Part shown: in pieces, positions 2,368 through 2,710 of the stretch | Numbering within the stretch: position 1 is the stretch's first letter | Layout: the number at the start of each line of letters is the position of its first letter | DNA from: an uncultured Rickettsiales bacterium | GTDB lineage: Bacteria; Pseudomonadota; Alphaproteobacteria; Rickettsiales; UBA1997 | Direction of reading: 5' to 3' | NCBI GenBank assembly: GCA_944391075.1 | Contig: CALXSG010000001.1 | Location: 6,381-70,380 of the forward strand | DNA: 64,000 bases | The notes under the pieces: model-generated | What the model saw: the letters and a program-made list of their open reading frames with translations, nothing else | Databases searched by the model: none | What the model was told of the DNA's origin: nothing | Position numbers and translations under genes: made by a program

Positions 2368-2552
2368 AATAAGTATAACTATACTTAATATTACAAGATT
2401 ATAACCTATTGTATTTGATATAAGATTTAAAGTTGAATTAAAACTATTATAATTATATTTTGAATTAAAATTTTTTGATTTAAAATTAGAATTATAATTG
2501 GTTAATTCTTCAAAATCAGTTTGATTGAAAGAATTAGAAGTTAAGAATTTGA

Positions 2553-2562
2553 GGGGGGGGGG
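2553..2562. repeat. G10 (C10 on the coding strand) homopolymer, a candidate slipped-strand phase-variation tract
   Basis: gaGGGGGGGGGGtaag read directly. This is the only long G/C homopolymer noticed in the window. It lies between ATG 2650/2611 and the in-frame 5' extension of ORF 199..2367. Confidence 0.9.
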
Positions 2563-2681
2563 TAAGTTTCTTAGCCAAATTTAGGCTATTTACTTCACAA
2601 CAATTGTTCATTGAACAATTATGTGATACACTCAAAATATTTATTTTCATAAATATAACCTATAATTATAAACGCATTATG

Positions 2682-2710
2682 AGTATATTTTAAAAAAGTT
2701 TAAAAATCAA
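2682..2710 (-). promoter_or_regulatory. Sigma-70-like promoter candidate for the 722-aa gene
   Basis: Minus strand reads TTGATT (2710-2705), a 17-nt spacer, then TATACT (2687-2682). It is followed by ...atAGGttatattt-ATG(2650). Such motifs arise by chance in AT-rich DNA. Confidence 0.3.

Follow-up and report, generated by a model that had tools for sequence, protein, structure and literature searches.

A length-variable C tract in the leader-coding region of modular pilin-like genes as a probable slipped-strand switch in an uncultured gut bacterium

The locus analyzed here raises the question of why a long reading frame stays open far upstream of its first start codon while a start codon located still further upstream leads into a homopolymer and out of frame. 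The window, that is, the whole 64-kb stretch of DNA that was analyzed, has a G+C content of 25.4%. The first-pass annotation had pointed out a run of ten G's at 2553-2562 in AT-rich DNA, and this was confirmed: it is the sole G/C run longer than 6 nt in the 64 kb, followed by one G6 and runs of 5 nt or fewer, and no G run of 9 nt or more appeared in 100 dinucleotide-preserving shuffles. On the coding strand the tract reads CCCCCCCCCC from 2562 to 2553, with the flanks aatttggctaagaaactta before and tcaaattcttaacttctaa after it. It starts 29 codons past the ATG at 2650, and this 5' coding homopolymer, C10, is long enough to slip when about 8 to 9 nt or more is taken as sufficient for G/C. Three features define the problem.

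2553 to 2562, minus strand: homopolymer of ten C's on the coding strand (G10 on the plus strand); C9 and C12 are in frame (ON), C10 and C11 are not (OFF)
199 to 2580, minus strand: main open frame of 793 codons plus stop, of which gene callers annotate just 199 to 2367 (722 aa)
2534 to 2650, minus strand: leader reading frame with two in-frame ATGs, the first at 2650-2648 and the other at 2611-2609

The 722-aa call and P0001 match with 100% identity. When the sequence was read again, the 722-aa frame was indeed open upstream of Met-2367 as far as the TAA at 2583-2581, over 71 codons with zero ATG, GTG, or TTG, and all other coordinates of the first-pass annotation held as well. The chance of 71 codons without a stop at the base composition of the window was estimated at a P of about 0.002. 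The extension encodes ...NTIG YNLVILSIVILI ahead of Met-2367. Because half of the hydrophobic helix is encoded upstream of Met-2367, a start at this position would cut the helix, as had been proposed. The leader frame is shifted by +1 against the main frame and specifies in the C10 state a peptide of 38 aa, MKINILSVSHNCSMNNCCEVNSLNLAKKLTPPPQILNF, which ends at the TAA at 2536-2534, five codons past the tract, in agreement with the list of open reading frames. One C less (C9) or two more (C12) fuse both frames. The C9 product has 816 aa, as had been estimated, with the leader frame as its N-terminus and the junction ...KKLTPPLKFLTSNSF... between both parts. Out of frame, the stop comes after 38 codons (window, C10) or 36 codons (L004, C11), and 720 to 790 codons downstream stay open. 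Unless its tract length was miscalled, the window carries an OFF allele.

When the fused sequence served as query in a protein search, 44 relatives were obtained, all of them with PF12810 or close to it. In many of these, the annotated start is MGVIMTAV or MTAVIGYY, a point midway in the hydrophobic helix. Tract lengths were read from the consensus assemblies of eleven tract-bearing loci plus the window, some of the compared loci coming from related samples of the same studies, and only the lengths 9, 10, and 11 were present.

Window: C10, OFF; ATPase-TrxB-MscS genes upstream
L008: C9, ON; same ATPase-TrxB-MscS genes upstream; encodes the full 802-aa P0045
L010 and L011: C9 and C10, ON (835 aa) and OFF (annotated 744 aa), respectively; syntenic on both sides
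L003: C10, OFF
L006: C10, OFF
L004 and L005: C11, OFF
L009 and L012: C9, ON
L013: C9, OFF; one nucleotide deleted in addition, 10 nt past the tract, in-frame length there C10

The comparison of tract lengths in related strains or MAGs, which had been suggested as a check, thus revealed polymorphism, with C9 in L008 and C10 in the window. The window and L008 share 99.81% identity across 4183 nt and 99.67% across 2412 nt, L010 and L011 99.69% across 10,235 nt, and both pairs of near-identical genomes differ in repeat length. The difference in length decides between an intact ORF and an early stop, and the OFF alleles keep the ORF further downstream. The OFF state was found in 7 of the 12 tract-bearing loci, window included. 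In metagenome ERZ24773445, L008 was ON and both L003 and L011 were OFF; these are states of different loci and not heterogeneity within one locus. At positions 3847-3870 of L013 one A is missing (cttaacttc to cttacttc). Being OFF at C9 and ON at C10, L013 indicates that a second indel can reset the "ON length" of a locus, and its in-frame length of C10 fits with the frame being what matters.

A tract-less paralogue, P0004/L001 (834 aa), is open throughout and carries CTTTGTTGC where the others have C's. Its conserved flanks are 41 nt apart, which is the C9 spacing, and its residues match on both sides (NL.KK.T ... SNSFNQTDFEELT) in one frame. Full-length C9 proteins exist in the protein database (P0045, 802 aa; P0054, 835 aa; P0068, 816 aa; P0071, 797 aa). 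All of them read ...LAKKLTPPLKFLTSNSF... (TPPLKF) and are members of 90% clusters of "truncated" proteins. The ON proteins begin MKINILSVSHNCSMNNCCEVNSLNLAKKLTPPLKF. A 99-aa leader query against the protein database returned three fragments, one in the C9 frame. Among the GTDB representative genomes one locus was found, L007, with a tract-less MFKKYNN-type leader that is cut by the contig end, and the JGI metagenomes gave no matches with the 26-nt module pattern or the protein patterns from the N-terminal alignment.

Upstream of the leader frame lies one further element.

2682 to 2710, minus strand: promoter-like TTGATT-17 nt-TATACT, conserved in paralogues, putative function

Evaluation of this element needs to consider the AT-rich background. 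Promoter-like matches numbered 13 in the window, compared to 8.0 ± 2.8 expected, so they are not enriched, and TTGATT-17-TATACT alone is indistinguishable from background. A TTG(A/C)(A/T)T ... TATAC(T) element is nevertheless present upstream of all six aligned paralogous loci (6/6), where the sequence around it diverges, and it is this conservation that supports the element. The AGG ahead of ATG 2650 had also been proposed as a Shine-Dalgarno-like motif. It was rejected because it is not conserved in the paralogues, as in L010 with ...gattataaattatattaATG, and there is no conserved Shine-Dalgarno sequence across the compared paralogues. Different ATGs and different first 10 or so codons are used at each locus, always in the same leader frame in all paralogues. 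Reading the sequence before Met-2367 gave no Shine-Dalgarno-like purine run.

Two small repeats are located near the tract. A hairpin TAGCC-7 nt-GGCTA at 2572-2588, 9 nt upstream of the tract, is coding and not significant alone. A perfect palindrome of 9+1+9 (19 nt), AATTGTTCA-A-TGAACAATT, at 2602-2620 opens the module shared with the paralogues and is also coding. Both occur in most tract-bearing paralogues, with 1 to 2 mismatches in the palindrome of L006 and L013, and both are absent from the tract-less L001. The palindrome was dropped as a site for protein binding or recombination, being coding and of a kind of which about 1 to 2 would be expected by chance in 64 kb (estimate).

To judge what would be switched, the fused product was compared with known protein families. 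It looks like a modular type IV pilin-like protein, although its match to the pilin signature is incomplete.

2332 to 2406, minus strand: degenerate class III (prepilin-type) signal sequence, with Gly at 2406-2404 followed by YNLVILSIVILIMGVIMTAVIGYY
1591 to 2406, minus strand: pilin-like N-terminal module of alpha-1 helix and beta-sheet region, motifs NGRLPCPAP and DDWGNKLVYIVP, aligned to P0044 by hhalign
691 to 1431, minus strand: ALK/LTK-type glycine-rich domain (GRD) PF12810, variable part of the family, Pfam 54.7 bits versus a cut-off of 24.5

A hydrophilic leader ending in Gly is followed by about 21 mostly hydrophobic residues (...ISNTIG|YNLVILSIVILIMGVIMTAVIGYY), which form the N-terminal hydrophobic half of a long alpha-1 helix; G-Y-N and then the stretch of about 21 hydrophobic residues are invariant in the family. 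The leader of about 82 aa is Asn-rich and atypically long, an unusual and lineage-specific feature, and in distant members of the family the leader is short and classic (MNKKG|YSLII, LNKRG|FSLLF, NSSG|YTLVS). The N-terminal alignment matched P0044 by hhalign with 97.8% probability (E of 9e-13, 187 columns) and placed G|YNLVI on G|FTLIE. P0044, a remote homologue, possesses the canonical RG|FTLIE motif and a Pfam N_methyl score of 26.9 bits versus a cut-off of 21.2. A weak PDB profile match to Geopilin (E of 0.047) put G|YNLVI on G|FTLIE, too. The N-terminal methylation motif PF07963/IPR012902 gave no match for the window protein at an E of 1 or below, and its position +5 is Ile, not Glu. In the AlphaFold prediction, the N-terminus forms a helix of 57 residues, and strands come after it (mean pLDDT of 67 to 74). 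Foldseek with the N-terminal module alone returned no significant match; the type IVb pilin CofA (3s0t_B) and the ETEC type IVb pilus (9iuf_A) appeared only at an E of about 3 to 4. Since this fold search was nonsignificant, the putative pilin fold is based on sequence-profile evidence. No PilB/C/D/Q-like machinery genes were among the 43 scanned ORFs of the 64-kb window.

The assignment of the glycine-rich domain to PF12810 is given by a Pfam score above the gathering score together with a GRD-like fold. Foldseek matched the ALK/LTK GRD structures 7mzy, 7nx4, and 7ls0 with E values of 2.7e-8 to 1.4e-7, a probability of 1.00, and 16 to 19% identity, and the mycobacteriophage Bxb1 tail-tip protein with an E of 2e-5; the partial alignment of the 793-residue model kept the TM-scores low. 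Overall, the product looks like a subunit of the surface or of a filament, with a GRD that resembles the ligand-binding domain of ALK. A surface or pilus location of the product, and any role as adhesin or antigen, would be consistent with this architecture.

Based on these data, the C tract is most probably a slipped-strand contingency switch in the leader-coding part of a modular pilin-like surface-protein gene. This agrees with the ON/OFF locus that the first-pass annotation had postulated, with C9 and C12 as ON lengths, and is supported by the C9-C10 pairs L008/window and L010/L011, by the tract-less P0004/L001 with its C9 spacing, and by the full-length C9 proteins in the protein database. 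Transcription would probably start at the conserved TTGATT-17-TATACT, the putative promoter, and translation at ATG 2650 or 2611. With nine C's, the ribosome would read ...KKLTPPLKFLTSNSF... straight into the body, yielding an 816-aa protein predicted to be composed of the Asn-rich leader of about 82 aa, the G|YNLVILS alpha-1 helix, the pilin-like module, the ALK/LTK-type GRD, and a Cys-containing C-terminal domain, in this order. Slipped-strand mispairing may add or remove one C at replication and shift the frame; with C10, the stop after 38 codons would mean that the body is not made. ON and OFF states would be heritable and probably reversible, presumably at a high switching rate. Because the same module is located on six or more bodies at different sites, each can switch independently, and independent switching of at least six loci could create a combinatorial repertoire of surface variants in the population.

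Three other explanations need to be weighed against the slipped-strand switch. The alternatives already named in the first-pass annotation, a pseudogenizing frameshift or a sequencing error, may apply to this single assembly but leave unexplained the recurrent indels in several loci with intact ORFs, all confined to the tract. If the tract was miscalled, its true length would be C9, the gene intact, and the frameshift an artefact of assembly or sequencing. Homopolymers of 9 to 11 nt are error-prone on some sequencing platforms, those of about 10 nt being a known weak point of several, and any single length, the C10 of the window included, could be wrong. At this site the nearest relative, L008 with 99.8% identity, carries C9. 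However, C10 or C11 was seen independently in L003, L006, L011, L004, and L005, in different samples, and P0048, a further cluster member of the same 722-aa length, is encoded on a different contig of 117,412 nt, which suggests that the OFF call was reproduced. A miscall in the window is unlikely, and one wrong value would leave the tract length-polymorphic across the family.

Expression despite C10 is quite improbable. RNA polymerase slippage or ribosomal frameshifting would have to restore the frame in some molecules, so that the tract tunes the expression level. RNA polymerase slippage on long homopolymers is known, mostly on A/T runs, and OFF alleles with nonetheless intact ORFs are common (7/12 tract-bearing loci), but such ORFs are equally expected for reversible contingency loci, and ON and OFF are already accounted for by tract lengths that differ in the DNA of near-identical genomes. 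The small conserved hairpin at 2572-2588, 9 nt upstream of the tract, speaks for this reading but is weak with its 5 base pairs. That the gene underwent irreversible pseudogenization by a recent frameshift, or that a functional leaderless protein starts at Met-2367, is hardly credible, even if gene callers annotated truncated forms of 722 or 718 aa in many assemblies. Indels recur in the tract only, at several loci and with lengths 9, 10, and 11 all present, and the 793 codons that come after it are undisrupted and share 99.7% identity with the ON allele. OFF alleles keep 720 to 790 open codons in DNA of 25% GC, which decaying pseudogenes would not. A start at 2367 loses 13 of the 24 hydrophobic helix residues plus the invariant G-Y-N, and no Shine-Dalgarno-like purine run precedes this Met. 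A slipped-strand switch remains the preferred explanation for the locus.

This probable switch is borne by a family. Tract-bearing genes occupy six or more chromosomal contexts with bodies from different 90% clusters, and a single tract-bearing 5' module heads six gene bodies or more. The 5' part of about 1 kb is 90 to 95% identical between paralogues, the glycine-rich part just 78 to 85%. Within the leader, one stretch varies in length.

2412 to 2471, minus strand: Asn-rich, length-variable leader stretch (NYNSNFKSKNFNSKYNYNSFNSTLNLISNTI), mosaic between alleles

It is the sole block where L008 departs from the window, with 13 nt in L008 versus 60 nt, and this accounts for the 802 aa of the L008 product versus the 816 aa of the C9 form of the window. 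Alternative versions of the block recur in other paralogues. The leader is probably a mosaic generated through gene conversion.

Junctions between loci were observed twice. In L009 (4006-4178), the promoter and leader of locus A, identical to those of the window, are joined to the body of locus C with Obg downstream; until roughly 80 nt beyond the tract this sequence shares 99.83% identity with L008, and from the start codon on it shares 99.06% with L003. In L012 (67-339), promoter and leader of locus A are joined to a locus-F-type body. Either paralogues recombined inside the shared module of about 170 nt or the scaffolds are chimeric. Several metagenome contigs (L005 1-70, L006 1-70, and the starts of L002, L003, and L012) end 70 to 460 nt upstream of these genes, and in two of them the end coincides with the edge of the shared 5' module, 67 nt ahead of the tract. 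Contig ends at the module fit with assembly graphs that break at a multi-copy repeat, and the copy number is probably under-counted in MAGs.

Divergent members from more distant species, P0015 and P0042, are annotated from MTAT or MTAV inside the helix and have close relatives whose leaders are complete; they may represent the OFF state of a further switch in those species. An unrelated small pilin-like gene in L001 (625 to about 1470, minus strand) possesses a 10-nt G tract at 1449-1458, just past its start, ATG ATG GTA AAA ATT AAA AAT TTG T-G10-TC GTT.... Here, G10 is out of frame and callers start at an internal GTG; G9 or G12 would bring the ATG into frame with ...NNFFA|FSLIELSIVLIIIGLLVAG... 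(Pfam N_methyl, E of 0.002). The finding points to G/C tracts within leaders as a general device of the pilin-like genes of this organism.

A wider reading is put forward as tentative and somewhat doubtful: variation might operate in two tiers, independent poly-C ON/OFF switching of at least six pilin-like genes, all with different ALK-type glycine-rich heads, and recombination in the module of about 170 nt that moves bodies between expression sites, with the small pilin-like class having a G tract of its own. If true, this uncultured gut bacterium with the label Rickettsiales would have a "phasome" dedicated to the subunits of type IV filaments.

Genes identified in the window include those for LpxB, LptA, MlaD, an OMP beta-barrel protein, Surface_Ag_2, DUF2155, DUF2460, PFOR, ThyX, Pol I, and an F-type ATPase. 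Surface_Ag_2 and DUF2460 proteins are typical of Rickettsiales and other Alphaproteobacteria. The Surface_Ag_2 (PF01617) outer-membrane protein is encoded at 42945-43901, the DUF2460 protein at 53534-54127, and pyruvate:ferredoxin oxidoreductase at 25198-28707, a combination that fits with an anaerobic, Rickettsiales-labelled gut lineage. The only relative among the GTDB representative genomes, from which L007 stems, is a gut MAG from Nepal with the label "uncultured Rickettsiales bacterium." The host would accordingly be placed as an uncultured, diderm, AT-rich, alphaproteobacterium-like gut organism. Also in the window are an ORF of 2458 aa (31621-38997, minus strand) with no NCBIfam match and a pair of inverted repeats of about 330 nt (5125-5451 and 56009-56334), 85 to 92% identical, 50.5 kb apart in two intergenic regions. 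The GC-richer core of this repeat (ccttaacctttggtt.tgaaccctaagaaccggagg...ccacaccctccggttgtcttgttat) resembles a structured RNA or the end of a mobile element; it had no Rfam family at an E of 1 or below. Rfam identified two tRNAs only in the whole window and nothing near the tract locus.

For the annotation of such genomes these data mean a correction: the called proteins of 718 to 752 aa begin midway through the transmembrane helix. The actual products have about 800 to 835 aa, and their production hinges on one nucleotide. A family of probably surface-exposed, independently switchable proteins has been identified in a gut lineage known from metagenomes, and the tract length per locus in the reads could serve as a simple read-out of the surface variation of the population in its hosts. 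The ALK/LTK glycine-rich domain gains a bacterial, pilin-fused context.

The slipped-strand mechanism itself is already well known from Neisseria pilC, Campylobacter, and Helicobacter. In Neisseria pilC, poly-G/C tracts inside the reading frame have lengths of 9 to 20 (PMC5953494). As outlined there for pilC1/pilC2 of N. gonorrhoeae and N. meningitidis (PMC5953494, and Jonsson et al. 1991 cited there), a G/C tract of about 9 nt or more is located near the 5' end of a type IV pilus-associated gene, length changes toggle translation ON and OFF, several paralogous copies exist, and relatives carry tract-less alleles, as in the family described here. In contrast, PilC/PilY1 is not a pilin and is unrelated in sequence to the window protein; here, the tract lies in a leader of about 82 aa, one 5' module is common to at least six loci, and the system is known from sequences alone. 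In the AT-rich genomes of Campylobacter jejuni and Helicobacter pylori, rare long G/C runs mark phase-variable surface genes, with a difference of one nucleotide between ON and OFF lengths in closely related isolates. The locus studied here differs from these by its occurrence in an alphaproteobacterium-like MAG group, by another gene family, and by a tract in a duplicated module that heads a multigene family. For Rickettsiales, a full-text search of the literature returned no paper on phase variation mediated by repeats.

PilB of Streptococcus sanguinis combines a pilin module (Gly-ending leader, about 21 hydrophobic residues, and alpha-1 of about 50 residues) with a bulky functional module for display on the filament, and phase variation is not described for it, as far as the relevant sections of PMC8179133 go. 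The window protein resembles PilB in being composed of a pilin-like module, a glycine-rich domain, and a C-terminal domain, but has a degenerate signal with Y1, N2, and I5 instead of F1, T2, and E5, a leader of about 82 aa instead of about 7, and an ALK/LTK-type GRD as the grafted module. This GRD scores above the PF12810 cut-off, and Foldseek gave an E of about 1e-8 to the human ALK/LTK structures; unlike them, it is bacterial and fused to a pilin-like module. New are the host lineage, the gene family of modular pilin-like proteins with an ALK-type GRD, and a family-wide switch carried by a shared module.
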